This document shows positions 6,408-47,385 of a stretch of 57,256 bases of DNA, piece by piece. The first letter of the stretch is position 1, and every line of letters starts with the position of its first letter. Source of the DNA: a virus; the IMG/VR virus record IMGVR_UViG_3300025294_000007, positions 1-57,256 of that record; one strand, 5' to 3'. A program made the translations under genes and the position numbers. The notes beneath the pieces were generated by a model, which ran no database searches, was not told the DNA's origin, and saw only the letters and a list, made by a program, of their open reading frames with translations.

Positions 6408-7493
6408 TTATTTTAAGCCTTTGATACGAGCGTGCGCTTTCTCTTGCTTAAATTCTAGTAAAAATTCGCCTACGATTTGACCTTCTTGGTAATCGCCCTT
6501 TACTCCTAAGAATGTATGTGCAAACTCGCGACCTTTAAGTGGTTTAATTTCTGTACGGTTAGCATCGATAATAAATACTTCGTCAGGCGCTACGTTGTTG
6601 TTCAGTAAGATTTCTGCAGAACCGAAGTCTGATAAGAAGTGATCTACGACTTGACCACGACCGTTATCTTGGCGAGCGATTGAAATCTTATCTTTGTCTG
6701 CTGCGGATAAAGCACGTTTTTGTTTAGCGCCTACAATAATTTTATAGTTACCACCTGTAGCGAAACCGCCTGCCTCATAAATCGCTTGGAAAGCGTCACC
6801 TAAAGCATCAAGTGTTAATTCAGCGTCAGCCTTATCGAATACATTCGTTTGAATAAAGTTACGAATACCGCCAGTTTGACGTACTTTACCGTCTGCTGAT
6901 TCGTATTTCACGCCATTGATTACTGCTTTTTCAAGTTGTAATGCAAGTTCTAACAGTTTCTTTTGTTTTTCGTATTCGTAAAGATCGTCAATGCCGTATT
7001 CAGAAGTTGCTGCGGCTGTACCAGAAATTGATACTGTTTCGTCGAAGATTTGTGTTAAGTTAGATACACGTTTACGTGATTTGTGACGTGCTTTACGAGC
7101 GTCAGCACCTTCGATACCTTCAACGAATTGGAATTCTACTTTAGCGCCATCTACTATAACGCCTGCTGTAGTTCCAGCATAGCCACGAGTTACAGTAAGT
7201 TCATTCGCATTAACTACCTTAACTAGTAGCAATTCTTCGCCTACTTTTACTACATGCTTCGGTTCAAAGATAGATCCGTCTGCAACTGTAATTTTAGTAG
7301 CATCCACTGCGGCTGCTGATGCAGTCGTTTCATCTGCATACATTTCATCCTCAAACCATTGATGTTCAACTTGGGCTACTGGATCGCCAAAGCCTACTAA
7401 GTTAATCATTGGTGTCTGATGTGGATTTAAAAGTAATAGTTCGTCTGTTACCGACTCTTTCTTGCCTACGATTTGATTCTGTAAAATTGTCAT
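6408..7493 (-). CDS. Major capsid protein, 361 aa
   Basis: Size, position after the scaffold gene, strong SD, and a hairpin downstream. Confidence 0.8.
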   Translation of the reverse strand: MTILQNQIVGKKESVTDELLLLNPHQTPMINLVGFGDPVAQVEHQWFEDEMYADETTASAAAVDATKITVADGSIFEPKHVVKVGEELLLVKVVNANELTVTRGYAGTTAGVIVDGAKVEFQFVEGIEGADARKARHKSRKRVSNLTQIFDETVSISGTAAATSEYGIDDLYEYEKQKKLLELALQLEKAVINGVKYESADGKVRQTGGIRNFIQTNVFDKADAELTLDALGDAFQAIYEAGGFATGGNYKIIVGAKQKRALSAADKDKISIARQDNGRGQVVDHFLSDFGSAEILLNNNVAPDEVFIIDANRTEIKPLKGREFAHTFLGVKGDYQEGQIVGEFLLEFKQEKAHARIKGLK

Positions 7494-7583: not shown

Positions 7584-8303
7584 CTATTTACCGAGTTGTT
7601 TTTTCAATTGTGCGTATGCAGCCTTATCCTTTAGTAAGCCCGTTTGTCGCGCTTTTTCTGCTGCTTCTGAGAGTAATTGGTCGGTTGTTTTTTCTACCGA
7701 CTGTTGACCACCGTTGGTAGCCTGTCCGATAGGTTGCGTTTGTTTCTTTGCTACCAGGTACGGTTTATTTTCAATAAGCGTCTTAATAACGTCATCTACA
7801 CCGTTTACTTTGCCATCTTCACTGATTTCAATTGAAGTTAGATCAGACAATGCAATGGCTGCGTCAATGTCGATAACGTTTGCGCTTGATGCTACCTTAA
7901 TAAACTCACTCTTAATCGCTTGTTGGCGTGTATTGTTACGTTCGGCTTCAAGCTGTGCCGTTAATTCCGTTAACTGTACCTCGAAATTTTTGGCTTGTTC
8001 TTGTGCTTTTTCAACTTCGCCTAATTCAGCAAGGCGTTGTTCTTCTGCCTTTTGTTCATATTTCTCTAACTGTGTTTTTAAATCATGGTAGTCAGCAAAC
8101 TTTTTACGTTCACGTTCAATGCGTTTAGCGATTAATTCATCTAATTGCGTTTGGGTAAACGTCTTTTCTGTGTTCTCAGACGCATCGAGTTTTGTTTCTG
8201 CGGACTCTTGTCCATTTGGATTCGTCTCAGGCGTAGTTGACTCGCCGTCTTCTGCAAAATATTGTAGGTTTAGCGTTAATAAGGCGTTGAATTTGTTAAT
8301 CAT
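7584..8303 (-). CDS. Capsid scaffolding protein, 239 aa
   Basis: Coiled-coil protein rich in Glu/Lys/Gln/Ala, immediately upstream of the capsid gene. Confidence 0.75.
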   Translation of the reverse strand: MINKFNALLTLNLQYFAEDGESTTPETNPNGQESAETKLDASENTEKTFTQTQLDELIAKRIERERKKFADYHDLKTQLEKYEQKAEEQRLAELGEVEKAQEQAKNFEVQLTELTAQLEAERNNTRQQAIKSEFIKVASSANVIDIDAAIALSDLTSIEISEDGKVNGVDDVIKTLIENKPYLVAKKQTQPIGQATNGGQQSVEKTTDQLLSEAAEKARQTGLLKDKAAYAQLKKQLGK

Positions 8304-8380
8304 AGCGTATTACCTCCGTTTTTTGAGCCTACGTAGGCTGTAGTTTCCGTTATTATTTAACGTCCTTTCCGTTCGGACAT

Positions 8381-8422
8381 AAAAATACCGCAACTCATTT
8401 ATTTCTCAGAGTGCGGTTTTTA
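8381..8422 (-). terminator. Bidirectional-looking hairpin after the toxin/immunity pair
   Basis: ACCGCA (8387..8392) pairs with TGCGGT (8412..8417), flanked by A- and T-runs. Confidence 0.45.
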
Positions 8423-8722
8423 TGAAAGATAAGATTCTGCTATTTCTATATCGTGCGCTATTAGTAAATTAGGATATTTTTTATCTAGTCTTTTGAGGCA
8501 ATCAGCGTATTCTTTACTTTGAAATACGTGTGCCAAGTCGTCAAAAATTGATGAAATCCAAGAAGCTTCTTCTTCGGTACATGTATCCAAAAAATGAATT
8601 GTATCTTTTTCAGCATTAAATTCTAAAACCAACTGATTCCAATAATTTTCGATTGCAGGATCGTTTATGTGCAATTCTTTCATTTTCTCAATAATATTCG
8701 TAATGTTACCTGTGTTAATCAA
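8420..8722 (-). CDS. Candidate immunity protein for the MuF C-terminal toxin, 100 aa, acidic
   Basis: TTG start 6 nt after SD GAGGAAGGTGA and 2 nt after the toxin stop, which suggests translational coupling. The region is visibly AT-rich and is followed by a hairpin. Confidence 0.5.
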   Translation of the reverse strand: MINTGNITNIIEKMKELHINDPAIENYWNQLVLEFNAEKDTIHFLDTCTEEEASWISSIFDDLAHVFQSKEYADCLKRLDKKYPNLLIAHDIEIAESYLS

Positions 8723-8724
8723 AT

Positions 8725-10005
8725 CTAATCACCTTCCTCTAAATGAGATTGCTTATTTGTAGGGAAAATAGTACTGATAACCTTATTATCATTTAGGTTT
8801 AAAAATACACCAATTTCAATATTCTTGTAAACACCAAATATTTGAAATCCATTAACAATTTTATTATTAGGATTGTTGGCTACATGTAAACCTGCTTTTT
8901 CAATATCATCTTTAGTCCAATTTTCAGGAAACCATGACTGTCCTACTCCAGTTTTCTTTGTCTTAGACTTATGTCTAGGAACGTTTCCTATGCGAACTCC
9001 GTTAGAGAAAATCTTTTCAATATTGTAATCAATATTATTTTCTTTTAAGAAACTAATATTATCTTGACCATGACCTCCACTTTTCATTTTAGAAATCTCT
9101 TGTGTGCGAGGTTCTATCGTAAAGTCTCCTAGATTAGCATGTTTAAGTGTTGATTCTGTTGGTTTCATCTCTGGTATATTAGATCGGCTATACTTCTCCG
9201 GATCACGCAATGGACTGATCAAATGTTTACAACGAGGATGAAATAGCTTTTTCCGTGGAATATCGCCGATGTAAGGATAATCTCCAGGTGCATTTTCTAC
9301 TAATTTTACAATTTTCCCCTCGTATTCACTGCAAGCGTCCTTAGCTCCATGACGACTAATTCGACCATAATAGGATTCTTCTGATAATGCTTCGTTAATA
9401 CTTGCTTCGCGATGCGCGTTCATCATATTTGTTCTGGCGACCACATCGGCATAGTTTTCAACTTTCCACCGATTACCCCTAGCGTCAATAATCGCAACGC
9501 CAGTAGCATTAATGATACGTTCCCGTATCTCTTTTGATATGTCAGAGGTGGCATTAATACCATTAGCAAGTTTAGCACGCATGGCTTCGACTGTTGCTTT
9601 TCTGATTGCCACCTTCGATTGTCGCTCCATATTTTGAGTTATCGCAAGTAAATCGGACTGTGTATTTGCTATAGCTGCGGCAATAAAGCGTCTATTTACC
9701 GTATTAAACTTTACAATTTTAAGGGCATCCTCATAAGACTTAGTAAGCTCTAAAGTATAAATAGTCGATGCGATACCTTCTGTTGCTGATTTAGTTAAGG
9801 CGACGGCAGACCATTCGTTTCCATATTTTTCAATGTCGGATAATATGTTACGGATAGACTTTTCAACGGCGATGATCTGCGCGCTCTCGAAATCCGTAAA
9901 AAATAAGTTGTTAAGTTCATTTTGAACGTCTTTTAATGCTTTTGTATAAGCTTTTTGTATCTTTTTAACGTCATAATCGTAATCTGGCTGAGGTACTTCA
10001 CGCAT
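8725..10005 (-). CDS. MuF/SPP1 gp7-like minor head protein fused to a C-terminal EndoU-like nuclease toxin domain, 426 aa
   Basis: The MuF core ends at ..KLFHPRCKHLISPL. The extra 150 aa or so carry SGGHGQDN..NGVRIGNVPRHKSKTKKTGVGQSWFPENWTKDDIEKAGLHVANNP, which matches the bacterial EndoU toxin pattern as I remember it. Confidence 0.7.
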   Translation of the reverse strand: MREVPQPDYDYDVKKIQKAYTKALKDVQNELNNLFFTDFESAQIIAVEKSIRNILSDIEKYGNEWSAVALTKSATEGIASTIYTLELTKSYEDALKIVKFNTVNRRFIAAAIANTQSDLLAITQNMERQSKVAIRKATVEAMRAKLANGINATSDISKEIRERIINATGVAIIDARGNRWKVENYADVVARTNMMNAHREASINEALSEESYYGRISRHGAKDACSEYEGKIVKLVENAPGDYPYIGDIPRKKLFHPRCKHLISPLRDPEKYSRSNIPEMKPTESTLKHANLGDFTIEPRTQEISKMKSGGHGQDNISFLKENNIDYNIEKIFSNGVRIGNVPRHKSKTKKTGVGQSWFPENWTKDDIEKAGLHVANNPNNKIVNGFQIFGVYKNIEIGVFLNLNDNKVISTIFPTNKQSHLEEGD

Positions 10006-11561
10006 CAGGCGTCAGTCCCTTCGACCGTTTCTGTATCAGGGTCATTAAAGATGGAAGCATCGACTGTACCAACTTCACGTTCTGTATCAGCTTTAATTCT
10101 TTCAATAATTTGTGCAGCTTGTAAGTCATCAAGCGAATCTAAGCGCTTAATAGCTGTAGCAACATCAATCGTTGGCTTGTTACCTGTACGGATTGCCATG
10201 ATTTCGGCTTGCTCTTTTTCTGAATGAGGTAATCCGTCTTGCCATTGTATTGTAGGATAAACGGCCTCGAAGTTAGCTTCACCATGCGCTATATCAAGCA
10301 ATTGGCAGTTATATAGTGCGTCTCGTAGAGCGCGGTCATAGTGCGTTCTAATACGAGCTACCTTCGTTAAGATTGGCATGAAACGAGCTTTAATCGCTGC
10401 TCCATCCGTATGTGACGTACCTGTTCCGCCTGCGTTTTGATCCCCGAGAACTGTACCGAATAGCCATTGTGGTGTTTCGGCGATTTGGAACGCCATTCCG
10501 ATTAACGTTTCGAGTTCTTTAAATGCACTATTTAACTGTCCATCCCATGTCATATAACCTGGCGTTTTATCTTCGGCAGTTAGAGGAATATATGCACCTG
10601 TTAAACGAGCTGAGCCTGTCGTTCCTAATTCTGGACCGTATGCTGTTGGATCACTATGTTTCCAGAGAATATAATCTAGCTGTACTAAACGGTCATTAAT
10701 CGCAATTAAGATGGATTCTAGAGCCTCCAGCGTACCTTTCCCTTCCCACTGATCGTCCGTTGATTTATATGGGATGTGATGGACTAGTAAATGCGGAACT
10801 CCAGTTTCAGTTGTTGTTGTTTCTCCAACTTTCTCGACGATTTTAAACAACTGTACTGGATAACCATAGCTAGTATCTATTCCGCCTTCATATGACTGTA
10901 ACTTATATCGCTCATTTATGATGTATCCAGGTAAATGACGCTCTACATTTAAAAACGGAATATCCTCTTTTGCAGTAACTACCCACTCAACTGACGCAAT
11001 TACAACAGACTTGAAGCTCTTAACGTTCCCTGCACTTGTTTGCGGGAAAACACAGTCTGCTGCGACATGCTCAATAATTGGCTCCATTTCTGCGTCAATT
11101 GGTAGTTCTAAACCCATTTCAGTCAAAACGCTATAGTCTTGACGGTAGTCATAGCGTACCTTGAACCAAGAATCTCCACGATAGCCATTTGCTAAGGCTG
11201 ATTCATGAATTAGCTTCACTAAGTCGTTTTCCTCTACGTATGAATTAATAGCCGTTTGTTGCGGTGAGTCATCAGCTAAACCACTATCAAAGATCGGAGG
11301 TTCTCCGACTAGTAAATCAGGAGGCTTGGTTACAATTATGTCTGCAATATTGGCTGCGATATATAACTTTTCTAACTGTGGTGCGTGCGGCGTATCACGT
11401 AATAAAGCCGTAGCACGTTCGTAAATTTCCGCTTGTTTCCCATCATATAACTTTTTCATTCGACGATATTTTGCGATACGCTCAATTGCGTTAGCAGGTG
11501 GAAATTGCTCTCCTGGCTTGAATGTATCGACATTGTATGTGACGCTTCCAGTTTCGTTCAT
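10005..11561 (-). CDS. Portal protein, 518 aa
   Basis: Size and position between the terminase and MuF genes. Confidence 0.8.
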   Translation of the reverse strand: MNETGSVTYNVDTFKPGEQFPPANAIERIAKYRRMKKLYDGKQAEIYERATALLRDTPHAPQLEKLYIAANIADIIVTKPPDLLVGEPPIFDSGLADDSPQQTAINSYVEENDLVKLIHESALANGYRGDSWFKVRYDYRQDYSVLTEMGLELPIDAEMEPIIEHVAADCVFPQTSAGNVKSFKSVVIASVEWVVTAKEDIPFLNVERHLPGYIINERYKLQSYEGGIDTSYGYPVQLFKIVEKVGETTTTETGVPHLLVHHIPYKSTDDQWEGKGTLEALESILIAINDRLVQLDYILWKHSDPTAYGPELGTTGSARLTGAYIPLTAEDKTPGYMTWDGQLNSAFKELETLIGMAFQIAETPQWLFGTVLGDQNAGGTGTSHTDGAAIKARFMPILTKVARIRTHYDRALRDALYNCQLLDIAHGEANFEAVYPTIQWQDGLPHSEKEQAEIMAIRTGNKPTIDVATAIKRLDSLDDLQAAQIIERIKADTEREVGTVDASIFNDPDTETVEGTDA

Positions 11562-11624: not shown

Positions 11625-11655
11625 ATAAAAAGCACCATCATTCTGACGGTGCTTT
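11625..11655 (-). terminator. Intrinsic terminator overlapping the 3' end of the HNH gene
   Basis: Minus-strand AGCACC-gtcagaatgat-GGTGCT followed by TTTTTAT. Confidence 0.6.
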
Positions 11656-12729
11656 CAATATTCCTAGCGATTCTGCTGAATGTCGTATGTCTCTTGCTAA
11701 CACTTTGTGGCGTCGACTATTAAACTTTTTAGCTATATTTGCTGGACAGTCGCGCTTTAGTTCGTTCTCTAACCACTCTTTATGCTCGTACGCAAAAGTG
11801 AGGGAATCGTTTTGTATTACCTCTATAACTTTGTATGGACGAATTTTTAAATCTGTTGCAATTTCGCTGACTGACTTCTTGTAATGATTATCGTGAATAT
11901 ATTGACGTCTTCTTTTCTCTGCAATTTCAAACGGTATTACCTTAAAATCTTCGTCGATATGCTGCTTATCGTGACATGTCTCGCATAAAGTGATTAAATT
12001 ACTCAAATCCGTCAATCTTGCGTCATTTTCGCAAATATCAACGAAAGAAAATCTGTCTTGTTCGTCCAACAAGTTAATGTGCTTGTTTTCGGATAATATG
12101 TCATGGATAATGTCAGAAAACCTACGTATATGATGTGCGTGCATTTCTCCACCTTTGACACCACAGGATTGGCAAGTAAACTCATCAACAATTAGCCTCT
12201 CTTTAGATACCCAAGATAGTCTGTTGCGAATAAGACCCGTGACTGTTGTAACCCCGCCTTTCCATAGCGGATGATTCTCTTTCGAACTCCCGTATTTTAC
12301 TTTACGCTCGTCGTGCGTAAATGATGGATCGTTTCGTAGTCGTTTTGGTATTCCGTAAATATCTAGCCTTTTACAAATTAATTTATTAGAACAGCCAAAT
12401 TGCTTAGCTACTTCGCGTGTACTCATGCGCTTTATTACGTATAGGTCGTGAAGGACTTCTTTTGTTATGTTCTCGTATGCGTTGAATGTCCGTCTGCTGA
12501 TACTAGCTTCTTTTAACCTTCGTAATACTACACTTTTATTGACGCCTAAAATTCCGGCAATTTCTATAGATGACTTTCCTTCGAGGTATAATTTAGAAAC
12601 TACCTCTTTTGTAATATCCTCTCGTCGATTGTGCGCTACTCTTACCATACTAATCACCTCTCGATGTGATTTCTCGGTATTAAATAAGGCGGAAACACAC
12701 CGAGATATGCACTTGTCGATTCGGCTCAT
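11638..12729 (-). CDS. HNH endonuclease with tandem N-terminal HTH modules (homing-endonuclease-like); the likely true start is ATG 12648 behind AGAGGTGA
   Basis: HNH core ..GGEMHAHHIRRFSDIIHD...NLITLCETCHDKQH. There are two sigma-region-4-like HTH repeats (SIEIAGILGVNKSVVLRRL and STREVAKQFGCSNKLICKRL). Confidence 0.8.
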   Translation of the reverse strand: MSRIDKCISRCVSALFNTEKSHREVISMVRVAHNRREDITKEVVSKLYLEGKSSIEIAGILGVNKSVVLRRLKEASISRRTFNAYENITKEVLHDLYVIKRMSTREVAKQFGCSNKLICKRLDIYGIPKRLRNDPSFTHDERKVKYGSSKENHPLWKGGVTTVTGLIRNRLSWVSKERLIVDEFTCQSCGVKGGEMHAHHIRRFSDIIHDILSENKHINLLDEQDRFSFVDICENDARLTDLSNLITLCETCHDKQHIDEDFKVIPFEIAEKRRRQYIHDNHYKKSVSEIATDLKIRPYKVIEVIQNDSLTFAYEHKEWLENELKRDCPANIAKKFNSRRHKVLARDIRHSAESLGILKAPSE

Positions 12730-12798: not shown

Positions 12799-14511
12799 TT
12801 ATAACCACGCTGGTTTTTCTTGTAATTGTATTTTCTTTGTACCCTGCGCCAACTGAAACGCCATTGCGAGGGCATCCGGTCCATCATCATGTCTAGCGTT
12901 TGGGTAAACTTCCAGTTGTTCGATTAATAAACGATGCTTCTTGCTGAATCGGATTTTCCCATTCTGTATGTCAGGCAACAGCGCTTCAATACGTAAAGAC
13001 TTTCGCATACGTTGCTTAACCTCTTTGACACGAGTGATTCCTGGGTAGCCGTAGCGTTGTAGTTCGTCTTTTACTTTATGTGCGAACCATTCTTGCGCCA
13101 TCTGCGCCTCGACTGCTATTCCTACGTATTGGTACTGTAGCGCTTTTTTTACGACTGTATTTAGTAGTATATCCGGATGAACACGTTCGATAAATGTATC
13201 GACTACGTAGCAAGTACCTGTTTCGCGGTTTCTAGCGAGTGTTACAATAGCGGAGTAGTCACCTTTTTCTTTCCCCATCGCAAAATCCACCGCTGCGTAA
13301 TAATCGACTTTCATCCCATCTAATTCAGAGTCGTAGAAGTACGTAAATTCCTCCGGTTTAAAAATCTGCGAATCGGGATCAGTAGGATTTCCAAGATACT
13401 CTTGGTTGAACGCTCTCCCACCCATTGATTCACGTTTTTCCATAAAGTATTTATATGAGTACATCTGTGGCCATAACGTTTTAGTTCCGCGTAGCATCTC
13501 TTTTTCATTTTCCACGTAAAAAGCGTTGGCTTTTTCGTTGGAAGCTACATCGTCGCTATTATAAATCTCACGCCACTGATCCCATAAATCTTCGCGCTCT
13601 GTCCACGCTAAAATCGCAGGAAACTTACGGCTAATAAAGTCTTTTCGTTGTGTGATGACGTGATTAAGTAAGGAGTCTGGACCTAAAATCGTACCCATGT
13701 AAATACAGATACCACCGAACCCTAACGCCTCCATCATTTCTGACCGGAACCAGTGTAAGTTTTTCGTACGAAGTTCAGGCGTATTTGTATTTGCGTTACT
13801 TTCAAGGTCATCTAGCAAGAAAAGTCCTGGGCGATTACTAAGGTGGCGGAGTCCCCTCATTTGCGTACCCATACCCTTCGCCTCGACCTTTGTACCACTA
13901 GTCGTAATAAATTCTAACTTGTTATCTACCTCGTTAGCTTGCGATTTTTGGTATAATAGTTCGCCAAAATCAGCACGTAGGCGTTCGTTAAATTTTAGAT
14001 TCTGCGCAGTAAACTTTATGAAATCTGCTGCTACGTCAGTAGTCTCGGAAACTTCGATTATATATTTTTGTTTACGATACACAACTTGATGGCATAAGAA
14101 CGCGTTAGATAGGTACGCAGTCTTTGCATGGCGTCGTCCTACCGACCATGCTACGTTTGATTCCGACTTTCCTTTTGCTATATCGTCTAATAGCCCACAT
14201 AACTCACGGTGGAAATCAGCCGCATCTGAGAAGTGCTGTCCTTTCGGAATTAGATTTACTTCATTATCTGGATTAACTTCGTCTGAAAAGTATTCGTATA
14301 CGAAATATAATAAGTCACTTTCGCATCGATGGATACGTTCTAGTCGTTCCAGCTCCGTTAATCTTTCGTGGTAATCATCGATAAGACCAGCGCTAATAAT
14401 GTCGTCAATATCGGCATACTTTGTGTCTATAGTTTCGATGTATTCGCGATACACTGCGATTAGTGCTTCACGTTTATTTCTTTCGAGCCATTCTCCGTCT
14501 ACCCACGCCAT
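12799..14511 (-). CDS. Terminase large subunit, 570 aa (start moved to ATG 14511 behind GGGAGG)
   Basis: Walker-A-like VGRRHAKT, then an acidic LLDDLE motif and a nuclease-like C-terminal half. The ORF-track start at 14640 lacks an SD. Confidence 0.85.
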   Translation of the reverse strand: MAWVDGEWLERNKREALIAVYREYIETIDTKYADIDDIISAGLIDDYHERLTELERLERIHRCESDLLYFVYEYFSDEVNPDNEVNLIPKGQHFSDAADFHRELCGLLDDIAKGKSESNVAWSVGRRHAKTAYLSNAFLCHQVVYRKQKYIIEVSETTDVAADFIKFTAQNLKFNERLRADFGELLYQKSQANEVDNKLEFITTSGTKVEAKGMGTQMRGLRHLSNRPGLFLLDDLESNANTNTPELRTKNLHWFRSEMMEALGFGGICIYMGTILGPDSLLNHVITQRKDFISRKFPAILAWTEREDLWDQWREIYNSDDVASNEKANAFYVENEKEMLRGTKTLWPQMYSYKYFMEKRESMGGRAFNQEYLGNPTDPDSQIFKPEEFTYFYDSELDGMKVDYYAAVDFAMGKEKGDYSAIVTLARNRETGTCYVVDTFIERVHPDILLNTVVKKALQYQYVGIAVEAQMAQEWFAHKVKDELQRYGYPGITRVKEVKQRMRKSLRIEALLPDIQNGKIRFSKKHRLLIEQLEVYPNARHDDGPDALAMAFQLAQGTKKIQLQEKPAWL

Positions 14512-15154
14512 ATTAGCGCCTCCCTTCGTATTTAACCTCTTATTACGTCGATTTAGCGTTTCTTCGTCGTTCTTTATAAAGTATTGTCTCATTGCGTAAA
14601 ACAGCGTACAGGCTATGCTAGATAGGGGAAATGTTGTCACGTCACGTTACCTTTCCGCAAGGTCAAAGCGAAATTTTGGTACGCCGATTTATTTGCTACC
14701 AGAAAAGCCGACTCAGAAATAGGTGGCTTGGGGGATTTTCTTTTTATTTAACGTTATTTCAACGCATTGAATATCGATTGAATAAATATTCGTTTTCAGC
14801 TTCCTATAACCTTAATTATGTAAACTTGATTAATCTTCAAGCCTTAGTATATCAACGTTCTTTAAGTACGCGTAAAATAAGCGTATGCAGTTTCTTATAC
14901 ATACGCCTTAAACTCGCTATTTACGTACACTTACGTTTAGTAATCGAACAAATATTTCATCAGCACTTGCATAAATTACTGTATATTGTTATGCCTTTTA
15001 TTTCGCCCATTTACACTTTATACGCCAAAGTGTTCTAGGTGTACGCCCATTTCCGCCCTCTGCCCGACAAACCTACGTCAAATGGGAAGTTTAGTGCGGT
15101 ACATTTACGTAATAATATGGAGTTTCTTCCTATATAAACACTGTGAAGGATTCG

Positions 15155-20578: not shown

Positions 20579-21289
20579 TCATCGTCCCTTTCCGTTTTTA
20601 AGTATCGTTACTTTCACTGTCTGTTTCCCTAATGTGTAAGCTTCATTAACGCTTGCAACGAGTACATCAATCTTACTACCTTTAATTGCCCCACCAGTAT
20701 CAGCGCAAATAGCCTTAAACGAAGTACCGTTTGGATATTCAACACGTACTATTGAACCTAGAGCAATTACAGTCGGATCAACGGCAATTACTCGTAGTCC
20801 GTTTGCAAATATAGTCTGTCGTACGTCATATCCCGTTGCAGTGATTCCAGAACAGCCATTGCAGCTCGATGTATAGTGAGTTGCTACCATTTTAAATTGC
20901 GTTAAATCAGCGTCGTTGTTTCGACTAATTTGCGCCTGCTCTTTTCGCTTCTGCGACTCTAATCGCTTTTGTTCCACTAACTTTTTGGCTTCCGCGCGAT
21001 GACGCTCGAGTTCTATTCTGCGTTTCTCCTCTGCAACCTTAGCTTCATATAACCTATGTGCTTCTTCTAACGCTTGTTGACGTTTGATGTTGAGTTCTGA
21101 TGCGGCTTGTTGGCGTTTCTTTTTGAGGACTTGAGCGTATAGTGCGTCAAATCCATTGTATTCTGTGTGTTCTAGCGTGCGTCCGGTGGGACTTTCGGAA
21201 AGCTGTTCGTGACTTTCTGGTTTATATACTATAATGAGCAGCGTTGCTACGATTATTAGCGCCATAATTGACGCGGAAATACGCTTCAA
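20579..21289 (-). CDS. Membrane-anchored coiled-coil protein with a C-terminal 3D (MltA/YabE-like) peptidoglycan hydrolase domain, 236 aa
   Basis: N-terminal TM helix, a Glu/Lys/Arg coiled-coil stretch, then HYTSSCNGCSGITATGYDV...IAVDPTVIALGS...ICADTGGAIKGSKIDV. Confidence 0.65.
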   Translation of the reverse strand: MKRISASIMALIIVATLLIIVYKPESHEQLSESPTGRTLEHTEYNGFDALYAQVLKKKRQQAASELNIKRQQALEEAHRLYEAKVAEEKRRIELERHRAEAKKLVEQKRLESQKRKEQAQISRNNDADLTQFKMVATHYTSSCNGCSGITATGYDVRQTIFANGLRVIAVDPTVIALGSIVRVEYPNGTSFKAICADTGGAIKGSKIDVLVASVNEAYTLGKQTVKVTILKNGKGR

Positions 21290-22002
21290 TCGGTAACCTT
21301 CGCTTCAATGAGATGTTGCGCTGAAATCGGAAAATCTTCACGAACAATCTGTAATACCGCGATAGCATAGTCGTAAATTTCCTTCTGAGCATCGTTCTTT
21401 AAGCGCTGGTCAAGGAAGTGACAAATCGCCTGTAATGAAGCAGTGTAGCGCCATCTCACCATTAATCCATAGGCTGGCAAGAATAATCTCGCTTGTTCCG
21501 GAGCAATTCCTGCATCCATAGCCGCCTCGTATGCAACCTCTCCATCTTTGTATACCTGCTCTAATGCCTGAGTCCATTTAATTCCTTCTGCCTCATCTAG
21601 TGGAGCGCCTGAACCTTGCTTTGAATTAGCTGGTTTACTGCGCCATTCGCCTGCGCCCGGCAAGTAAAACTCCGTCTTTTCCGTGATGTATCGTCGGCTA
21701 GATTCACTCCAAGGCGTACCGTCCTCAATGTGCTGGCTATCAATTGCGTAACGCCACCACTGACGAGCTACGACTAACGGTGCGTAGACTTCGAATGAAA
21801 TACGAGGTGACCGGAAAGGCGACATATGTTTTTCACGAGCTAAGAATGCGATAAGACGCTTGTCACTATCTGTTAATTCCGCCGATTCCTTGTCGTACGA
21901 GGCTCTAGCGTTGTTAACTACAGTTAGGTCCGAACCAAAGGTTTCGAGGTGTCTTACGTAGCCTTTATCTAATACGTTAATTTTGCGTTCGTTTTTTTCC
22001 AT
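21286..22002 (-). CDS. thyX: Flavin-dependent thymidylate synthase ThyX, 238 aa
   Basis: ThyX-like ..ARQWWRY...SESSRRY.. signature region, plus size and context. Confidence 0.7.
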   Translation of the reverse strand: MEKNERKINVLDKGYVRHLETFGSDLTVVNNARASYDKESAELTDSDKRLIAFLAREKHMSPFRSPRISFEVYAPLVVARQWWRYAIDSQHIEDGTPWSESSRRYITEKTEFYLPGAGEWRSKPANSKQGSGAPLDEAEGIKWTQALEQVYKDGEVAYEAAMDAGIAPEQARLFLPAYGLMVRWRYTASLQAICHFLDQRLKNDAQKEIYDYAIAVLQIVREDFPISAQHLIEAKVTD

Positions 22003-22061
22003 AAGTAACCTCCACTATTTTAATTTCTTTACACGAGCTGCTCTTTTTTCTATCCTCTTAT

Positions 22062-22592
22062 TCACACGCCACTACTTCCCCAACCGTTTGTGCCTCTATC
22101 GCTATCCTCTAACTCTCCCGTAATCTCAACAGCAACCGTATTTGGACGTGGTTGTACGGTTAACTGAGCAATTTTAACACCTTTACGGATAATGTACGTT
22201 ACATTAGTGATGTTAGTTTTCGGATCATCTATAGTAGCTGTAAGTGGCTGAAATTCTACTAATGGGGCGTTAGTATTGTCCATGATAATCCCGATCTCCC
22301 CTCGATACCCTTCATCAATTGGCGGACTTACTACTCTAAGTTTCGTTTTACTAGAAATTCCACTACGATTTTTAATGTAGGCGTCATGACCCTTTGGTAA
22401 GACTACTGCTAAGCACGTCTTAATTACCTTAGTCTCACCTGGAGCAATAACGACGTCCTCTGCTGCGTATATATCGTAGCCAGAGTCGCTTGCGTGCGCC
22501 TTTGTTGGCAATATTGCGTCATCTGTTAAACGTTTAAATCCGATTACTAATGGCATATTTTGCGTCTCTTTCTCAATTAAATTTGCGTCCAT
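22062..22592 (-). CDS. dut: dUTPase, 176 aa
   Basis: Motifs SDSGYDIY, NRSGISSK, IDEGYRGEIGI and RGTNGWGSSG. Confidence 0.85.
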   Translation of the reverse strand: MDANLIEKETQNMPLVIGFKRLTDDAILPTKAHASDSGYDIYAAEDVVIAPGETKVIKTCLAVVLPKGHDAYIKNRSGISSKTKLRVVSPPIDEGYRGEIGIIMDNTNAPLVEFQPLTATIDDPKTNITNVTYIIRKGVKIAQLTVQPRPNTVAVEITGELEDSDRGTNGWGSSGV

Positions 22593-22804
22593 TATTCATC
22601 CTCCTCCTCGTAATATTCATCGTCTTCCGTCATAAATCCGATAACATTTGTACTCTCAGGTTGAGTCAATAATGGGTTAATACTCACTTGTATCTCCATT
22701 TCGCTTGCGACTCCTAGCGTATCAATAAACGCTTGGATGTCTGTAGCTGCTTGTGGTAATTCTGACGAGTCATTTACGTTTAAGCCGATTACATACCTTT
22801 TCAT
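22592..22804 (-). CDS. Small acidic protein, 70 aa
   Basis: ORF coupled to dut. The C-terminus is DDEYYEEEDE. Confidence 0.4.
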   Translation of the reverse strand: MKRYVIGLNVNDSSELPQAATDIQAFIDTLGVASEMEIQVSINPLLTQPESTNVIGFMTEDDEYYEEEDE

Positions 22805-22817
22805 TACGTAGCCTCCT

Positions 22818-23471
22818 CTACCATGTCATTTCATCCGCAATAGTCGATAAACGACCTCGAAAGTTTTTCGTTAACTGTACGACATTTACAAAGTCGTACG
22901 GCACTAAGTGTTCGATATATGGTACAAACCCACTCTTATTTGGATTTGATAAGTCATTCTGTCCGTCATGCCCTTCAATGATTACCGTACAACTATCATG
23001 GATTCGCGTCAGAACCTTCTTCAGTTCGCCTCGCGTAAAGTTCTGCGCTTCTGCGATTATCACAGTCGAATCCTTGATATTTGTACCACGAGCAAAAATA
23101 TGACTGCGTGGATAAACCCACACATCACCATGTTTTTGCGCTTCGTTATTCTCTACATCATAAATCACCTTAGAAGGATTTTCGCCAATTTCATATAAAG
23201 CATCGATTAACGGCTGGTAGTATTCAGCTTCTTTATCCCGTTGTGTACCTGGTCGAAATCCCATTTTTCCTTCTTCAACTGGTGCGAAAATGTAAACGAG
23301 TGGCTTATTGAGTAAGGCAGCGCAAGCTACTGCAAGTGTAGTCTTACCACTGCCAGCCTTCGCATTTACAATTGTAACTTGCTTATCAAAAATACTATCG
23401 ACATATTCACGTTGCTCTTGCGTCATTTTTTCAACAAATCCAAATAACATTGTATCTCTAGGTAACCCCAT
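22818..23471 (-). CDS. PhoH-like P-loop ATPase, 217 aa
   Basis: Walker A NAKAGSGKTTLA and Walker-B-like VIIAEAQN. Confidence 0.7.
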   Translation of the reverse strand: MGLPRDTMLFGFVEKMTQEQREYVDSIFDKQVTIVNAKAGSGKTTLAVACAALLNKPLVYIFAPVEEGKMGFRPGTQRDKEAEYYQPLIDALYEIGENPSKVIYDVENNEAQKHGDVWVYPRSHIFARGTNIKDSTVIIAEAQNFTRGELKKVLTRIHDSCTVIIEGHDGQNDLSNPNKSGFVPYIEHLVPYDFVNVVQLTKNFRGRLSTIADEMTW

Positions 23472-23533
23472 AATTACGCCCCCTAATCGATAATGTAATT
23501 AAATTCGAATCCTTAACGTTCTTCTGAATACCT

Positions 23534-24502
23534 CTAGTCGAAATAAAAGTCTGAATCATGAACCGGTTCAACTGTTGCTTTTTTGTAGCCATTACCTTTC
23601 ATTGAGAAGAAGTCATGAGATTTTGTTTTCGTTGATAGTCCATTTAAAACTATTGGATTAAAGTTATCGTGTTTATAATATTCTTTAAAACCAACGTTAG
23701 ATAACGCCTTATTAGCATTGTATTGTACAAAATTAAGCACATCATGTGTAAGTCCGATCTCGTCGTAAATATCAGCAGTATACAAAGCTTCGTTTTGATA
23801 TAACTTTTCAAGTGTTCCATATACCCATTCAGACAGTTCGCTCTGAACATCTGATGACTGACGGTTATAGATTTCCTGTGCTAATAGCCCGACATATACT
23901 CCGTGAATACTTTCATCACGAATGATTAAGTTTATGATCTCTCCAGCCTGCATTAGTTTTCCTTGTCCGTACATATACAATGGATAGTAGAAGCCACTGT
24001 AAAATAAGAATGATTCAAGGAATACGGATGCAACTAGCGCCTTATAAAGTGTAATATCGTCATTACTTTTAACCGACTTGTACTGCGTCACTATAACGTC
24101 GGCTTTTGACTGTAAATATTGGTTTTCCTGCACCCATTCAAATACCCCTTTAATTTCCTCACGGTTTGCCAGTGTTAAGAAAATGTTCGAGTAAGACTTC
24201 GCATGTACTGAGTTTTCCATAGCTGACATGAAGGTAAGCAACGCTTGTCGTTGATGTCCTTTAATAAGAGGAATTAATCGCGGTATACCAACTCCTTGTT
24301 CTGTATCAAGTAAAGTCAGTCCTCCAAGTACACGCATATATGTTTTTTGTTCTTCTTTCGAAAGTGCTTTCCAAGTCAATAAATCCGGTGTGAGTGATAT
24401 TTCCTCTGGTAGCCAAAATTGCGAGTGATTCTGCTTTAAAAATGCCTGCGTAAATGAGTCGTCATCTACCGCGTAGTTAGCAGCCGTGTATACATTGGTC
24501 AT
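23534..24502 (-). CDS. nrdF: Class Ib ribonucleotide reductase beta subunit
   Basis: Ferritin-like di-metal motifs ([17 protein letters not shown]), 322 aa, next to nrdE and nrdI. Confidence 0.85.
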
Positions 24503-24514
24503 TTAGCATCCTCC

Positions 24515-26596
24515 TTAAACTTGACACGCTAGACAAGTATCTGCGCCTGTATCTTTTGTTCGTGCATAGTAAAGCGTCTTAATCCCTTTGTGATGAGCAT
24601 ATAAATCAATCTTTGTTAAATCGCGTGTTGTCATTGTGTCACGTAAGAATAACGTAAAACTTATACCTTGATCTACATGGCGTTGAATAGTTGCAATTAA
24701 ATCGACAACTTTTCGCATATCCATTTCATATGCTTCTTTGTAATAAGCCCATGTTTTATAGGATAGGTTAGGCATAGGATAGTAAGTTTTCGAGTTTCCG
24801 TAAGTTCGTTCCTCAATACGCTCCATAATCGGCATAACGCTCGCTGTCGCTGATTGTACATAGCTTATTGAACCTGTTGGAGCAATAGCGAGGCGATAGG
24901 CATTGTATAAGCCATATTTAGCTACATCGGCTACTAGTTCTCGCCAGTCGTCGATCGTTGGTAGCTCGATGCCGTCAAATAAAGATTTAATATACTCGTC
25001 TTTAGGTAAATGACTATTGTTTACGTAGTCCAAAAAGTAACTGCCATTTGCATAACTTGATTTTTCAAACCCTATAAATACAGTTTCTTTTTGTTTAGCT
25101 AACCCCATAGAACGTTTAATAGAATAATAGTTGACGGCTGCAAAGAATACATTTGCAAATTCCATTGCTTGTGGGCTTTCATAGTTAATTCCTACACTTG
25201 CTAGATAGCCATGTAAGTTCATAGCACCTAAACCAATCGAGTGCATTTCCTGATTAGCCTTTGAAACAGCTGGAGCATTAGCGATAATAGTTGACTCTGA
25301 CACAACTGTTAATGCATCCGTAGCTAAAGATACTGCACGATCCATGTCTTTTAATCGCATGATATTAGCAATATTTAAAGATCCTAAGTTACATGAAATA
25401 TCTAAACCAATTTCATCAGATTGTCCGTAATCTGTATACGTAGATTGCTCTGATAGTTGCAAAATTTCGCTACATAAATTCGAAAATTTAACAGTGCCAT
25501 CTAACGCATGAACATTGTTCACATTGTCGCTAAACATGATATACGGATACCCAGACTCAAAGCGAAGTGCAGCAATCTTTTCAAGCAATTGGCGTGGATT
25601 AATTCGGTCTTTTCGAATCGTAGGATTCGCCACTAATTCATCATAACGTCTGGATATATCTATGTTTGAGAAACGTTCTCCTGTTGCCATCTCTACAGTA
25701 TGCGGGTAGAACACATAAGCCGGCTTATTCTCTCGGGCAAGTTCGATAAACTTATCTGGAATAACGACGCCAATGGATAGCGTTTTTACTCGTACATCTT
25801 CATCAGCACTAATTTTTTTTGTATCAAGAAAATCATTAATGTCTGCGTGAAAGACGTTTAAATAAGCTGCTCCAGCCCCAGGGCGTTGTCCCATTTGGTC
25901 CGCATAACGAAAAGCATGATCAAGCATCTTCATAACGCCTACGACGCCTTTAGCAACGTTTTTAATACCTTTAATGGATTCACCTTTTGCACGGATATTG
26001 GAAAGGTTTAATGATACGCCACCGCCTAATTTTGAAAGCTGTTTTGCAGTTGATTCTGCCATGTTAATATCGTTTAAACTGTCGCCTACTTCCGTTAAGA
26101 AACACGACACTAATTCGCCCCTACGTTTACGTCCGACATTTAAAAATGTTGGTGTAGCCGGTTGATACTCTTGTTCGATTAGCAAGTCTGCATAATCAAG
26201 CGCCTTTTGCGGATCACCTTTCGCAAAGAATAAAGCATTTACTGCTATACGATCTTCATAGCGTTCCAAGATACATTCTCCATCGTCCGTCTTTAAAGCA
26301 TAGTCATTATAAAACTTGTATGCTGACATAAAAGAAGGAAAACGAAATTTCTTCGCATAAGCACGCTTGTAAACTGCTTTTACCTGTTCAAATGTGTATT
26401 GATCGAATAACTCTTGTTCGTAATAGTTATTTTCAAATAAGTAGTTAAGTTTTTCATGTAAGTTATGAAAAAACATGGTCTTTTTATTGACGTAATCCAA
26501 AAAGTAAGCGCGAGTTGCTTCCTGATCTTTTTCGTATTGGTAAATGTCTTTATCACCTTGCAGCATTATCTCATTATTTAATTCGTAGTATCGCAA
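24515..26596 (-). CDS. nrdE: Class Ib ribonucleotide reductase alpha subunit
   Basis: 693 aa. Contains ..NLCSEI.. and a C-terminal ..CLACQV redox pair. Confidence 0.9.
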   Translation of the reverse strand: MRYYELNNEIMLQGDKDIYQYEKDQEATRAYFLDYVNKKTMFFHNLHEKLNYLFENNYYEQELFDQYTFEQVKAVYKRAYAKKFRFPSFMSAYKFYNDYALKTDDGECILERYEDRIAVNALFFAKGDPQKALDYADLLIEQEYQPATPTFLNVGRKRRGELVSCFLTEVGDSLNDINMAESTAKQLSKLGGGVSLNLSNIRAKGESIKGIKNVAKGVVGVMKMLDHAFRYADQMGQRPGAGAAYLNVFHADINDFLDTKKISADEDVRVKTLSIGVVIPDKFIELARENKPAYVFYPHTVEMATGERFSNIDISRRYDELVANPTIRKDRINPRQLLEKIAALRFESGYPYIMFSDNVNNVHALDGTVKFSNLCSEILQLSEQSTYTDYGQSDEIGLDISCNLGSLNIANIMRLKDMDRAVSLATDALTVVSESTIIANAPAVSKANQEMHSIGLGAMNLHGYLASVGINYESPQAMEFANVFFAAVNYYSIKRSMGLAKQKETVFIGFEKSSYANGSYFLDYVNNSHLPKDEYIKSLFDGIELPTIDDWRELVADVAKYGLYNAYRLAIAPTGSISYVQSATASVMPIMERIEERTYGNSKTYYPMPNLSYKTWAYYKEAYEMDMRKVVDLIATIQRHVDQGISFTLFLRDTMTTRDLTKIDLYAHHKGIKTLYYARTKDTGADTCLACQV

Positions 26597-26940
26597 ACCA
26601 TCGACATCCTCTCGTTAAAAATTAGCACATCTTCATCTGTACCTGCCAGCTCGAATTTCTGCAGTAGAGGTACACCATATTCCTGTGCTATTAAGTCGCC
26701 AGCTTTACCGTAATTAACTCCCCAGTTACGATTACCACTAACGGCTACAGCACGCATTAAATGTCCGTTATTTCGCAGCCATTTCTTGACCTCTATTGGT
26801 ACTTCACCAAAGCCAAATGTATAAGTAATTAATACATAAGGCTCTGATGCGTTTTCTTCACGAATGCACTTCGCTTCAATATTTAGCTTTTCAACAAACC
26901 GCTGTACATTTCCAGTCAGACTCGCGTAATAAATTAGCAT
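26578..26940 (-). CDS. nrdI: NrdI flavodoxin-like protein
   Basis: MLIYYASLTGNVQRFV N-terminus, 120 aa, overlaps nrdE. Confidence 0.8.
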   Translation of the reverse strand: MLIYYASLTGNVQRFVEKLNIEAKCIREENASEPYVLITYTFGFGEVPIEVKKWLRNNGHLMRAVAVSGNRNWGVNYGKAGDLIAQEYGVPLLQKFELAGTDEDVLIFNERMSMVCDTTN

Positions 26941-27242
26941 TTATCGTCGCCCTTACTCTTGTTAGCCCCTACAAATGCAACACCTAAAATTGCAGTGATT
27001 AGTGTTAACAATCCGAAGACTTTTGGCAGGTCATCTTCTCTTACATTAGTTAATCCTAGTGCATTGAACGCTTGTACAACGTAATCACCTGTAAAGGCCT
27101 CTAGCACATAACCGAACCCCATGCCGACTAATAGTGCCAGCAATGGCAATACTGCAAAAGAAATAATCAGAAGAAATACTATTAGAATAAATGCTAGAGT
27201 ACTAGCAACAAATCCCATATTTTTACGTTTGTTTTGCGTCAT
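26934..27242 (-). CDS. Membrane protein with 2-3 TM helices, 102 aa
   Basis: Hydrophobic helices only. Confidence 0.45.
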   Translation of the reverse strand: MTQNKRKNMGFVASTLAFILIVFLLIISFAVLPLLALLVGMGFGYVLEAFTGDYVVQAFNALGLTNVREDDLPKVFGLLTLITAILGVAFVGANKSKGDDKC

Positions 27243-27740
27243 TTAATCAATTACACCCTTTCGTTTTAAGTAAACAATGCCAACCGCGATTGAATCAGAA
27301 ATATCTCCGCCTTTATTGTTGCGTAATTCGTCAATTCCGAAGTATTTCTTAACGGCTAACTCTACGTTTTCCTTCTTCATTCCGTCTTTTCCGGTAACTC
27401 CTGTAACTTCTCGTGCCCATTTCTTAACTGACGCAATATTGATTGGCTCTAGCTGGTAATCAGCGAGGCTAAACTCGATAACTCCCCGCGCTTTTGCAAT
27501 CTGCTTAGTTGCGGTATTAAAGCGAACAATGCCGTCCTCAATTGGAATAACCGAGCCAATATCAGGATACTTTCCGAGAATTGCGAGAATCCCCGAATGT
27601 AACTCTCGTAATCGCTCTCCATCACTCAACTTTGCGTTAGTTTTAATTAAACCGTAACTAACTACTGTTGCTTTTCTTTCATGAACAGACAAGACCACCC
27701 ACCCTGACTTTGTTAGCGAGGTATCTAGCGCAAGTATCAT
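27243..27740 (-). CDS. RuvC-like Holliday junction resolvase, 165 aa
   Basis: N-terminal MILALDTSLTKSGWVVL, plus size. Confidence 0.65.
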   Translation of the reverse strand: MILALDTSLTKSGWVVLSVHERKATVVSYGLIKTNAKLSDGERLRELHSGILAILGKYPDIGSVIPIEDGIVRFNTATKQIAKARGVIEFSLADYQLEPINIASVKKWAREVTGVTGKDGMKKENVELAVKKYFGIDELRNNKGGDISDSIAVGIVYLKRKGVID

Positions 27741-27742
27741 AA

Positions 27743-28822
27743 TTAAACACCCTCTGCTAAATAGTTTCGTAGATTCGTATGTTCCTGTTTGCCTGCCATG
27801 TTAGACTTTGACATTGTTTTTTCAACTTCAACCAAACGCGTTAATTCAACGTCTGTTAAGACTTTTTTACAGTGAGATTTAAATGGACAAAAACCGCATT
27901 TTGAGGTCATCTCTACGTTCATTCCAGGTATCTCACCGTTATATACTAGCTCAGCTTGTCGTGATAGATCATCAAGCAATTCATTCTTCATTTCATCCGT
28001 AATATAGAAGTACATCGCTCGAAAGTCAGGTAAAGGTTTGCCGTTATGCCAAGTCTTACGTGTTTTAGGTACTGATTTACGTTCTTCATCTGAGAACCAA
28101 GACGGCTTATGCATCGACTCGTACACTACAAAGCCTTCGTTAATTCCGTACACAATCGCTTCTGCAGTTACTTGGCGTAAATGATCGGCTTGCGCTCCGT
28201 TATAATCGAGCTTTCCGTTCATTTCAACGACCCCAGAAGCCTTTGTTTTATATTCAAAGATGAAACGTCGCTCTGGATCATTTGCATAGTTTAGGATTCC
28301 ATCCGGCTTAACTGTAATAGCAAATTTAACACCATTATGCTCAATCACTTGACGTACTTGCATAGCATCCTCCATCGCATAATCGCCATCGGATGTTATT
28401 GCAAAAGTAAATAATGCATCATTTCCTAGTCGCTTTTCCATGTGTGCAATGTCTAATTGTAAGTATTCGATAACTGCGCTACCTACACGGCGTTGACGTC
28501 CTCTAAATGGAATGTCTGGTGTCTTTTCTACTTTAACTTTCGCATTTTTAAAGAAGATTTCACGATCGCATTTGTTCGTTCCTGACGCGCCGAACGTTAC
28601 AAGCCCGTCATTTGGATACGGAGTAAAATTGATATGCCGTAAACGCTGCTCGTAAAAATTCCGAGCTATTTTGTTATCGTGAAAACTAGATGTTGGAGAC
28701 GCATAATAAATGTCAAATTGCGATTGAAATAGCTGTGCTAACTCTGCGCCTTCTTCGTATTTATCCATTAAAAACTGCTTATTGTTGTCGCCATATAAAG
28801 CTGTAAGTGCCTCATTGTTCAA
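27743..28822 (-). CDS. PD-(D/E)XK exonuclease of the Cas4/RecB type with a 4-Cys cluster, 359 aa
   Basis: ..FIFEYKTK.. core. One N-terminal Cys (GTNKCD) plus a C-terminal CGFCPFKSHC. Confidence 0.65.
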   Translation of the reverse strand: MNNEALTALYGDNNKQFLMDKYEEGAELAQLFQSQFDIYYASPTSSFHDNKIARNFYEQRLRHINFTPYPNDGLVTFGASGTNKCDREIFFKNAKVKVEKTPDIPFRGRQRRVGSAVIEYLQLDIAHMEKRLGNDALFTFAITSDGDYAMEDAMQVRQVIEHNGVKFAITVKPDGILNYANDPERRFIFEYKTKASGVVEMNGKLDYNGAQADHLRQVTAEAIVYGINEGFVVYESMHKPSWFSDEERKSVPKTRKTWHNGKPLPDFRAMYFYITDEMKNELLDDLSRQAELVYNGEIPGMNVEMTSKCGFCPFKSHCKKVLTDVELTRLVEVEKTMSKSNMAGKQEHTNLRNYLAEGV

Positions 28823-28823
28823 A

Positions 28824-47330: not shown

Positions 47331-47342
47331 ACAAAAGAAAAA

Positions 47343-47385
47343 ACCGAGTGGACAATTGCGACGTCTACTCGGTCTTTTTCTTTTT
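47343..47385. terminator. Bidirectional intrinsic terminator
   Basis: ACCGAGTGGAC / GTCTACTCGGT stem flanked by an A-rich run and T5CT5. Confidence 0.7.

Follow-up and report, generated by a model that had tools for sequence, protein, structure and literature searches.

A likely MuF-family polymorphic toxin and its putative immunity gene in a 57-kb contractile-tailed Lysinibacillus phage

Polymorphic toxins built on MuF-type minor head proteins have been described in phages (Zhang et al. 2012, PMC3482391; Jamet et al. 2017, PMC5576092). EndoU_bacteria is listed among the toxin domains of this class and small open reading frames (ORFs) are described downstream of the toxins (Jamet et al. 2017, PMC5576092); the word 'EndoU' is not found in the supplement text of the 2017 paper. 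MuF toxins have been found only in temperate phages and prophages, mostly siphoviruses (PMC5576092), and the only MuF class with experimental data is Apk2, which occurs in prophages of Streptococcus pneumoniae, Mannheimia and Pasteurella (PMC12226406). In SPP1, the minor head protein gp7 associates with the portal and binds DNA, and each capsid contains a few copies of it (PMC5576092, PMC12226406). Here we analyse a locus on the minus strand of the IMG/VR virus record IMGVR_UViG_3300025294_000007, of which positions 1 to 57,256 form the stretch studied (the window). In this locus a MuF-type minor capsid protein of 426 amino acids (aa; 8725-10005) ends in an EndoU-like domain and is followed by an acidic ORF of 100 aa (8420-8722). 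We consider it likely that the two are a MuF-family polymorphic toxin and its immunity gene, carried by a contractile-tailed Lysinibacillus phage of ~57 kb. The locus adds an example to the described MuF class and is not a new type of system.

The locus shares with the described MuF toxins an N-terminal MuF-superfamily domain, here of the MuF2 type (PF06152), encoded directly after the portal gene, a C-terminal toxin domain common to other polymorphic-toxin families, an ORF of less than 150 aa immediately downstream, and a Firmicute host. It differs from them in its carrier, a contractile-tailed phage of ~57 kb with replication and nucleotide genes of its own, no integrase and a ParM-type gene, and in the rarity of the fusion within its own lineage (two of the 120 best-scoring MuF-core relatives in a large protein database, the sample to which all counts of core homologues refer). 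With Apk2 it has in common a MuF N-domain, a C-domain that is toxic in Apk2 and predicted to be so here, and a downstream immunity gene (IapK, which binds the toxin in Apk2) more diverged than the toxin; Apk2, however, is a (p)ppApp synthetase with two immunity genes, whereas a ribonuclease (RNase) with one is predicted here. The gene for SPP1 gp7 also follows the portal gene, and this protein is the basis for considering packaging and ejection below, but it is a single-domain PF04233 protein without a toxin tail, whereas the core in the window belongs to PF06152.

The EndoU-like domain and its downstream partner

The original prediction held that the ORF continues for about 150 residues beyond a MuF core ending near HPRCKHLISPL, and that this extension is an EndoU-like toxin domain. 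We find HPRCKHLISPL at residues 256-266 of the 426-aa ORF, followed by ~150 further residues that include GGHGQD and NGVRIGNVPRHKSKTKKTGVGQSWFPENW. The Pfam search that had been suggested matches PF14436 (EndoU_bacteria) to residues 306-416 (E=1.6e-12; 48.4 bits, the gathering score being 25.3). Likewise, the NCBI annotation of the 426-aa protein in Lysinibacillus xylanilyticus and L. capsici reads 'EndoU domain-containing protein'. The domain comprises residues 289-426, which with the TAG stop occupy 8725-9141 (-), and AlphaFold models this tail with a predicted local distance difference test score (pLDDT) of 93.7 and the element order alpha-bb-alpha-bbb-alpha-bbb.

Conserved residues of the toxin domain are H289, H312, R338, H345, K350, S357, T412 and P415. 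PF14436 is present in all of the 37 distinct toxin ORFs that we collected from viruses (best E=9.1e-18), and among these G293, G310, H312, N335-G336-V337-R338, G340, K350, W358-F359-P360, W363, A371 and P415 are invariant, while H289, H345, Q356 and T412 are conserved in at least 90%; S357 is invariant in a 38-sequence alignment of the tail. The Tox-EndoU signature consists of H, H, [SNT] and [SNT] (Zhang et al. 2012, PMC3482391), and the signature residues of XendoU are H162/T278 and H178/S229 (PMC3482391). The spacings along H289-H312-S357-T412 are 23/45/55 as compared with 16/51/49 in XendoU, the equivalence being drawn from order and spacing and not from superposition. H289, H312, K350, S357 and T412 are likely the equivalents of the known EndoU catalytic residues.

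Among EndoU toxins of bacteria, CdiA-CT(STECO31) of E. coli (PDB 5HKQ) is reported to be a metal-independent transfer RNA (tRNA) nuclease that cuts the anticodon loop (Michalska et al. 2018, as relayed in PMC9086364), with a His-His-Lys(-Thr) active site made up of H187, H204, K261 and T262 according to the same account (PMC9086364). Both it and the window protein are EndoU-clade toxins of bacterial type, and the element order given there, bb a bbbb a bbb, is close to the modelled a bb a bbb a bbb. The two differ in that neither a sequence match nor a Foldseek match joins them, and in their route, type V secretion as opposed to a phage head. CdiI(STECO31) is alpha/beta in that account, whereas the small ORF of the window is predicted to be all-alpha. 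The substrate specificity of STECO31 is not transferable to the window toxin.

The downstream gene is as it had been called, a 100-aa acidic ORF beginning 2 nucleotides (nt) after the toxin gene behind a Shine-Dalgarno site. Its TTG start (8722-8720) lies 2 nt past the TAG stop (8727-8725), and the Shine-Dalgarno-like sequence GAGGAAGGTGAT, read from the sequence at 8728-8739 (-), falls within the last codons of the toxin gene; the counterpart in a related locus, L010, is AAGGAGGGTGAA. The TTG start is credible because the residues before the first internal Met are conserved among homologues. The 2-nt spacing, together with a Shine-Dalgarno site inside the toxin's last codons, points to translational coupling. 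The protein has an isoelectric point of 4.5 (19 D+E versus 8 K+R), and its structure model contains six helices and is all-alpha, with no significant structural match in a Foldseek search of the PDB.

Homologues of this small protein form a family of ~100 aa that comprises 306 clusters in a HMMER scan of 1.84 billion representatives, a few members having two or three tandem copies of the domain. NCBI annotates the ORF as 'hypothetical protein', NCBIfam has no match for it, and in PHROGs it matches only phrog_19054, 'unknown function'. By these profile comparisons the family is broad and unnamed, and lies outside the named immunity families (Pfam Imm*, SUKH, SuFu, CdiI). Two of its proteins, P0171 (317 aa) and P0183 (401 aa), contain three tandem ~100-aa immunity domains and look like poly-immunity fusions. 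The YxiD/YxxD pair of B. subtilis, which we considered for comparison, is unrelated, being Ntox50 with an Sm-like immunity protein.

By sequence, the tail is closest to EndoU proteins of Listeria (57% identity), one of which carries a PT-TG pre-toxin domain; the Listeria LXG/PT-TG cassettes (L. welshimeri GCA_014227085.1, L004; P0006) are the closest sequence relatives of both genes. An LXG (type VII) toxin locus of L. welshimeri encodes an LXG-colicin E5 toxin with its immunity gene, then a 138-aa EndoU cassette, and then a 104-aa ORF with 39% identity (E=5e-18) to the small ORF of the window. Gene order and spacing are those of the window; the difference is that the Listeria modules are orphan C-terminal cassettes or PT-TG/LXG fusions for type VII secretion, with no fusion to a head protein. 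Listeria also has another homologue of the small ORF, located 3' of an LXG toxin in an array of short ORFs, where it adjoins a CdiI_4 immunity gene. Among phages, the toxin and small ORF of L010 are 67% and 54% identical to those of the window.

Over IMG/VR the toxin clade is encoded at 53 loci, which reduce to the 37 distinct toxin ORFs aligned above, and 35 of these are MuF fusions (23 with Phage_Mu_F, 12 with Phage_min_cap2). At 40 of 52 viral loci the next ORF on the same strand is a match to a hidden Markov model (HMM) of the small-ORF family, and at three of the other 12 the contig ends there. The small ORF is more diverged from the window copy than the toxin is in every one of 34 distinct pairs (mean identity 34% versus 50%). 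Paired conservation and faster divergence of the small ORF are what comparative analysis typically shows for a toxin and the immunity protein cognate to it. As homology indicates, the pair is in circulation both in Listeria LXG loci and in many phages, with head proteins of the MuF1 as well as the MuF2 type. The original prediction had called the small gene immunity-like; because its pairing with the toxin clade is conserved across these delivery contexts, and because it also occurs as an orphan and in arrays, its reading as an immunity-like partner is supported. A family of ~306 clusters, hitherto unnamed, is in this way tightly linked to one EndoU clade and common to MuF1 and MuF2 proteins and Listeria LXG loci, and its spread shows that cassettes are exchanged between the heads of phages and the secretion systems of bacteria. 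In four MuF-EndoU groups of IMG/VR (L042; L044/L045; L051; L053-L057) the next ORF has no match to the immunity HMM though the contig continues, and in these groups the toxin clade may be paired with another immunity family.

The orphan closest to the window copy is 74% identical to it and lies at 8001-8309 of L005, on the chromosome of Lysinibacillus sp. NPDC093692 (GCA_050280125.1), with small helix-turn-helix (HTH) genes among its neighbours and no EndoU ORF detectable near it; it may protect its host against toxin delivered by phage particles. Another record, L002 (OR846734.1), bears the name 'Listeria phage LM 4-11-1' (UNVERIFIED_ORG), and the part of it that we examined resembles a bacterial chromosome, not a phage. 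It holds the C-terminal part of an LXG toxin and an array of small immunity-type ORFs that includes CdiI_4, followed by a large apparent solute-binding protein and ABC-transporter-like genes, labels given by eye and not by a family scan.

The MuF2 core and the junctions of the insertion

The N-terminal part of the 426-aa protein matches PF06152 (Phage_min_cap2) over residues 43-238 with 32.4 bits (gathering score 26.3) and does not match PF04233 in Pfam. Within the MuF superfamily, PF06152 is the branch named 'MuF2' (Jamet et al. 2017, PMC5576092). In PHROGs residues 4-291 fall in phrog_4611, a family of minor head proteins (E=1.9e-41). The gene lies directly 3' of the portal gene in the head and packaging module, the portal stop and the MuF start overlapping by 1 nt. 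When the whole 426-aa protein was compared with the PDB, PDE4 phosphodiesterases came up for the helical MuF core at 15-17 bits and E about 0.02-0.2, weak matches that we rejected as chance.

That the toxin and the small ORF are a swapped-in module, as the original prediction had proposed, is borne out by the relatives that lack them. The best-scoring core homologues are short (272-300 aa) in 118 of 120 cases and are 46-79% identical to the window core; PF14436 is present only in P0050, from the same phage (99%), and in P0093 (430 aa). Protein and DNA alignments place the end of the aligned short genes at about residue 275, at ...PLRDPSKYNE(S)*, so the core corresponds to residues 1-275 (9181-10005, minus strand). 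From this native stop to the last ~45 nt before the scaffold start the window contains ~790 extra nt. Because 118 of 120 core relatives are short, and the aligned short ones stop at about residue 275, the toxin and small-ORF module is, on this comparative evidence, a ~790-nt insertion. In isolated phages tblastn matches the core only, over residues 1-272, the best matches being Sporosarcina phage Lietuvens (51%) and Halcyonevirus phages of Paenibacillus larvae (40%). Lietuvens, the closest isolated phage, has a portal, a 300-aa minor capsid protein and a scaffold gene, and neither the tail nor the small ORF.

Composition gives the same picture of the junction. The segment had been noted as visibly AT-rich; its guanine-plus-cytosine (GC) content is 30.6% over 8420-9165, as compared with a mean of 39.7% (standard deviation 3.1) for stretches of the same size in the window. 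Only 0.02% of positions are as GC-poor, which makes it essentially the lowest such stretch in the 57 kb. GC at third codon positions is 0.19 in the toxin part, 0.25 in the small ORF and ~0.33 in the flanking head genes. The fall in GC begins at the linker between core and toxin (residues 276-288, SNIPEMKPTESTL, 9142-9180, minus strand), and homology to the Listeria EndoU cassette starts at PTESTLKHANLGDF. We read these boundaries as those of a cassette, made up of the linker, the EndoU-type RNase domain, the 100-aa putative immunity gene and a terminator-like hairpin, that has been recombined onto the 3' end of a MuF2 gene.

The cassette does not appear to have entered in one way only. The core of the window is ~83% identical to its tail-less relatives as far as the native stop, whereas the core of the L010 fusion is 93% identical to a tail-less protein over residues 1-220 and only 52% over 221-272; the junction of L010 therefore differs from that of the window. 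Given the differing junctions, related cassettes have entered this phage lineage at least twice, or have moved among its members by recombination at different points. The exact insertion junctions, and the evidence that they provide for repeated cassette exchange, are new here.

The hairpin with which the original prediction ended the pair is found at 8378-8424 (-), where it overlaps the small ORF's stop codon, and a U-run, AUUUUUAU, comes next. Its folding energy is -15.7 kcal/mol (z-score -4.85), matched by none of 200 shuffles. The intergenic region continues through 8304-8377 (-) with two weak hairpins and the Shine-Dalgarno site of the scaffold gene, and all of it save the last ~45 nt is missing from tail-less relatives; its distal part belongs to the inserted module. 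Non-coding DNA at 8304-8419 is 78-85% identical to 7116-7221 of L010, whereas the coding parts are only 63-69% identical, and the conserved stretch consists of the terminator-like hairpin together with GUCCNAACGGAAAGGAC and the bases next to it. Rfam contains no family matching this conserved hairpin region. Since the hairpin and the sequence after it are more conserved than the coding parts between the window and L010, the cassette seems to introduce a 3' regulatory element of its own in the midst of a head operon. An internal promoter for the small ORF was also considered and is not claimed: candidate hexamers in the toxin-coding region are no commoner than in shuffles and are not conserved in L010.

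The carrier phage and the readings of the locus

The 426-aa protein is found in identical form on two metagenome contigs (57,175 and 57,270 bp), and copies 99% identical to it are present on contigs of 55.9-59.5 kb in assemblies of L. xylanilyticus and L. capsici. The genome is complete in the window, in a form permuted relative to these contigs. Queried by megablast with 6 kb and with 25 kb of its sequence, the window has no match in phage and plasmid collections, so these collections hold no close sequenced relative. The phage's genes for structure and lysis include sheath, tube, baseplate, tail fibre, holin and amidase; those for replication include a family A DNA polymerase, a DnaB-like helicase, a primase, RuvC and a Cas4-like nuclease, with an IstB-like ATPase match just under the Pfam cut-off; and those for nucleotide metabolism include NrdE/F/I, thioredoxin, ThyX, dUTPase and PhoH.

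An Alp7A/ParM-like actin gene lies at 45989-47065 (+), matching PF17989 and PF22128, with small ORFs at 47046-47613 (+). In 343 plasmid records there is a ParM segregation gene that its product matches across 80% or more of its length; the best match, at 46% identity, is on a plasmid of Lysinibacillus capsici. A relative with the short MuF gene is on a separate 63.5-kb replicon in a finished L. xylanilyticus genome, and relatives of the phage occur as separate replicons or contigs of ~56-64 kb in Lysinibacillus assemblies. Given the ParM-like gene, the lack of an integrase and the relative on its own replicon, an episomal phage-plasmid is the most economical reading of the carrier, and the genome is consistent with an episomal temperate lifestyle. 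The original prediction had placed the fusion among those of temperate Firmicute phages; its assignment to the described class and to a Firmicute host stands, and the word temperate fits only as a probable episomal lifestyle, since no integrase was found and the phage looks like a phage-plasmid. A myovirus that does not integrate and is probably plasmid-like is an atypical carrier, also new here, and would widen the range of lifestyles known for MuF toxins if the phage-plasmid is confirmed.

How would such a pair work? Fusion and immunity protein would be co-produced at a late stage of the lytic cycle, and in the producer cell the acidic immunity protein would bind the RNase and block it. By way of the portal, the MuF core would carry the fusion into the procapsid in a few copies, in the manner of SPP1 gp7, and upon the next infection the fusion protein would exit the head along with the DNA. 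The RNase would then cut host RNA, most likely tRNA or another small RNA set, by a metal-independent His/His mechanism, leading to translation arrest in recipients without the immunity protein; cells with the phage or with a chromosomal orphan copy of the immunity gene would be protected. We infer packaging, injection, toxicity and neutralisation alike from SPP1 gp7 and from the MuF-toxin literature, in which the biological role of these toxins is still open and virion delivery is not known to have been demonstrated. For that question the locus is a compact test case, with a single RNase domain whose candidate catalytic residues are obvious, one small putative immunity gene, near-isogenic natural relatives without the module, and a culturable host genus.

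Several results weigh against reading the pair as an EndoU toxin and its immunity protein in a temperate carrier. Neither in the PDB nor in BFVD does the confident tail model have a significant Foldseek match; the matches listed, which are all insignificant and lead to small BECR RNase toxins, do not include solved EndoU structures (5HKQ and 2C1W, for example), and a profile of the tail has no match among PDB sequences. Because so confident a model retrieves no solved EndoU structure, the EndoU assignment rests on the sequence profile and the conserved-residue signature, and its link to solved EndoU folds is unconfirmed. The model of the small ORF is only moderately confident (pLDDT 71.5), and 50 members of its family show no consistent Pfam match, one weak match to Imm68 apart. 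We find no promoter of the immunity gene that is conserved between the window and L010, which leaves its expression in carrier cells unsupported. No integrase or recombinase was found in any window ORF scanned, so the published association of MuF toxins with temperate phages would extend to this locus only if the phage-plasmid inference is right.

Taken by themselves, the missing structural match to solved EndoU enzymes and a small ORF without a named family would suit a tail that is a decaying or non-catalytic remnant, or a structural or RNA-binding decoration, followed by an unrelated moron. We regard this as very unlikely: both ORFs are intact on four independent contigs of the phage (two identical, two 95-99%), the candidate catalytic residues are invariant or nearly so in 37 diverged homologues, and the two-gene pairing is kept across genera at 38-57% identity. 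It is just as hard to credit that the pair is an addiction module, in which loss of the element would deplete a labile immunity protein and leave residual toxin to kill the cell. Such a toxin-antitoxin-like stabiliser would go well with apparent plasmid maintenance, that is, with the ParM/Alp7A-like segregation protein and the separate ~56-64-kb replicons or contigs. However, the toxin is fused to a structural head protein of a late operon that should be silent in carriers, it precedes the immunity gene and there is no autoregulatory HTH, many phages of 30-45 kb have MuF proteins with the same cassette, and neither protein is matched by PADLOC or toxin-antitoxin families. PADLOC likewise reports no defence-system match at the locus.

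Who would be served by the RNase? The EndoU tail could be an injected early effector of the infecting phage, degrading host tRNA or messenger RNA or countering an RNA-based defence, with a small ORF that only silences the enzyme during virion assembly; it would then be neither an interbacterial weapon nor a trait linked to lysogeny. The packaging logic is identical to that of a polymorphic toxin, and the sole difference is who benefits. The gene set is of virulent type (DNA polymerase, DnaB-like helicase, primase, NrdEFI, ThyX, dUTPase and PhoH, with no integrase), and both genes, for which no promoter is conserved, appear to be expressed only within the late head operon. We nevertheless think this role in host takeover improbable, since the tail is dispensable for the infection cycle, being absent from 118 of the 120 best MuF-core relatives, LXG interbacterial toxins use the same cassette, and orphan immunity copies in chromosomes and immunity arrays are typical of competition toxins. 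The polymorphic toxin with its immunity gene remains our preferred reading, in which the beneficiary may be the infecting phage, the carrier population or the stability of the plasmid. A bolder form of it would make MuF-EndoU an injected effector of a non-integrating phage-plasmid lineage and the 100-aa family a dedicated EndoU immunity, kept as chromosomal orphans specifically to survive toxin delivered by particles. We offer this tentatively, as rather unlikely; if true, MuF-EndoU in a non-integrating phage-plasmid would break the pattern of 'temperate integrated prophage only', and an immunity gene of a polymorphic toxin would act as a defence against a phage effector.

Neighbouring genes

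Along the minus strand the head and packaging module runs in the order terminase, HNH, portal, MuF, small ORF, scaffold and major capsid. The large terminase gene (12799-14640) is followed by a gene for a 363-aa HNH endonuclease (11638-12729), which lies between it and the portal gene (10005-11561; PF05133 SPP1_portal, E=1.3e-7). Beyond the insertion come the scaffolding protein (7584-8303; PF06810 Phage_scaffold, E=2.3e-14), which is the downstream limit of the inserted DNA, and an SU10-type major capsid protein (6408-7493). Sporosarcina phage Lietuvens likewise has an HNH endonuclease gene between the large terminase and the portal. In L010 and L012 no gene lies in the terminase-portal interval, and a small resolvase (L010) or a 174-aa integrase-domain protein (L012) is encoded just upstream of the terminase. 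Judging by the HNH gene in the window and the resolvase or integrase-domain gene near the terminase in these loci, the neighbourhood of terminase and portal is a variable spot.

Elsewhere in the window, positions 20579-29111 (-) form a compact block encoding ThyX, dUTPase, PhoH, NrdF, NrdE, NrdI, RuvC, the Cas4-like nuclease and thioredoxin, adjoining a 3D-domain protein; this set of nucleotide-metabolism genes is unusually rich for a 57-kb phage. Two long genes at 37871-40366 and 40448-43078 (-) are distant from the tail module, with the replication genes on one side and the ParM region on the other. They encode proteins of 831 and 876 aa with weak matches to BNR and Big_7, the 831-aa protein having a weak match to Glucodextran_B as well, and both may be sugar-binding or depolymerase-like.

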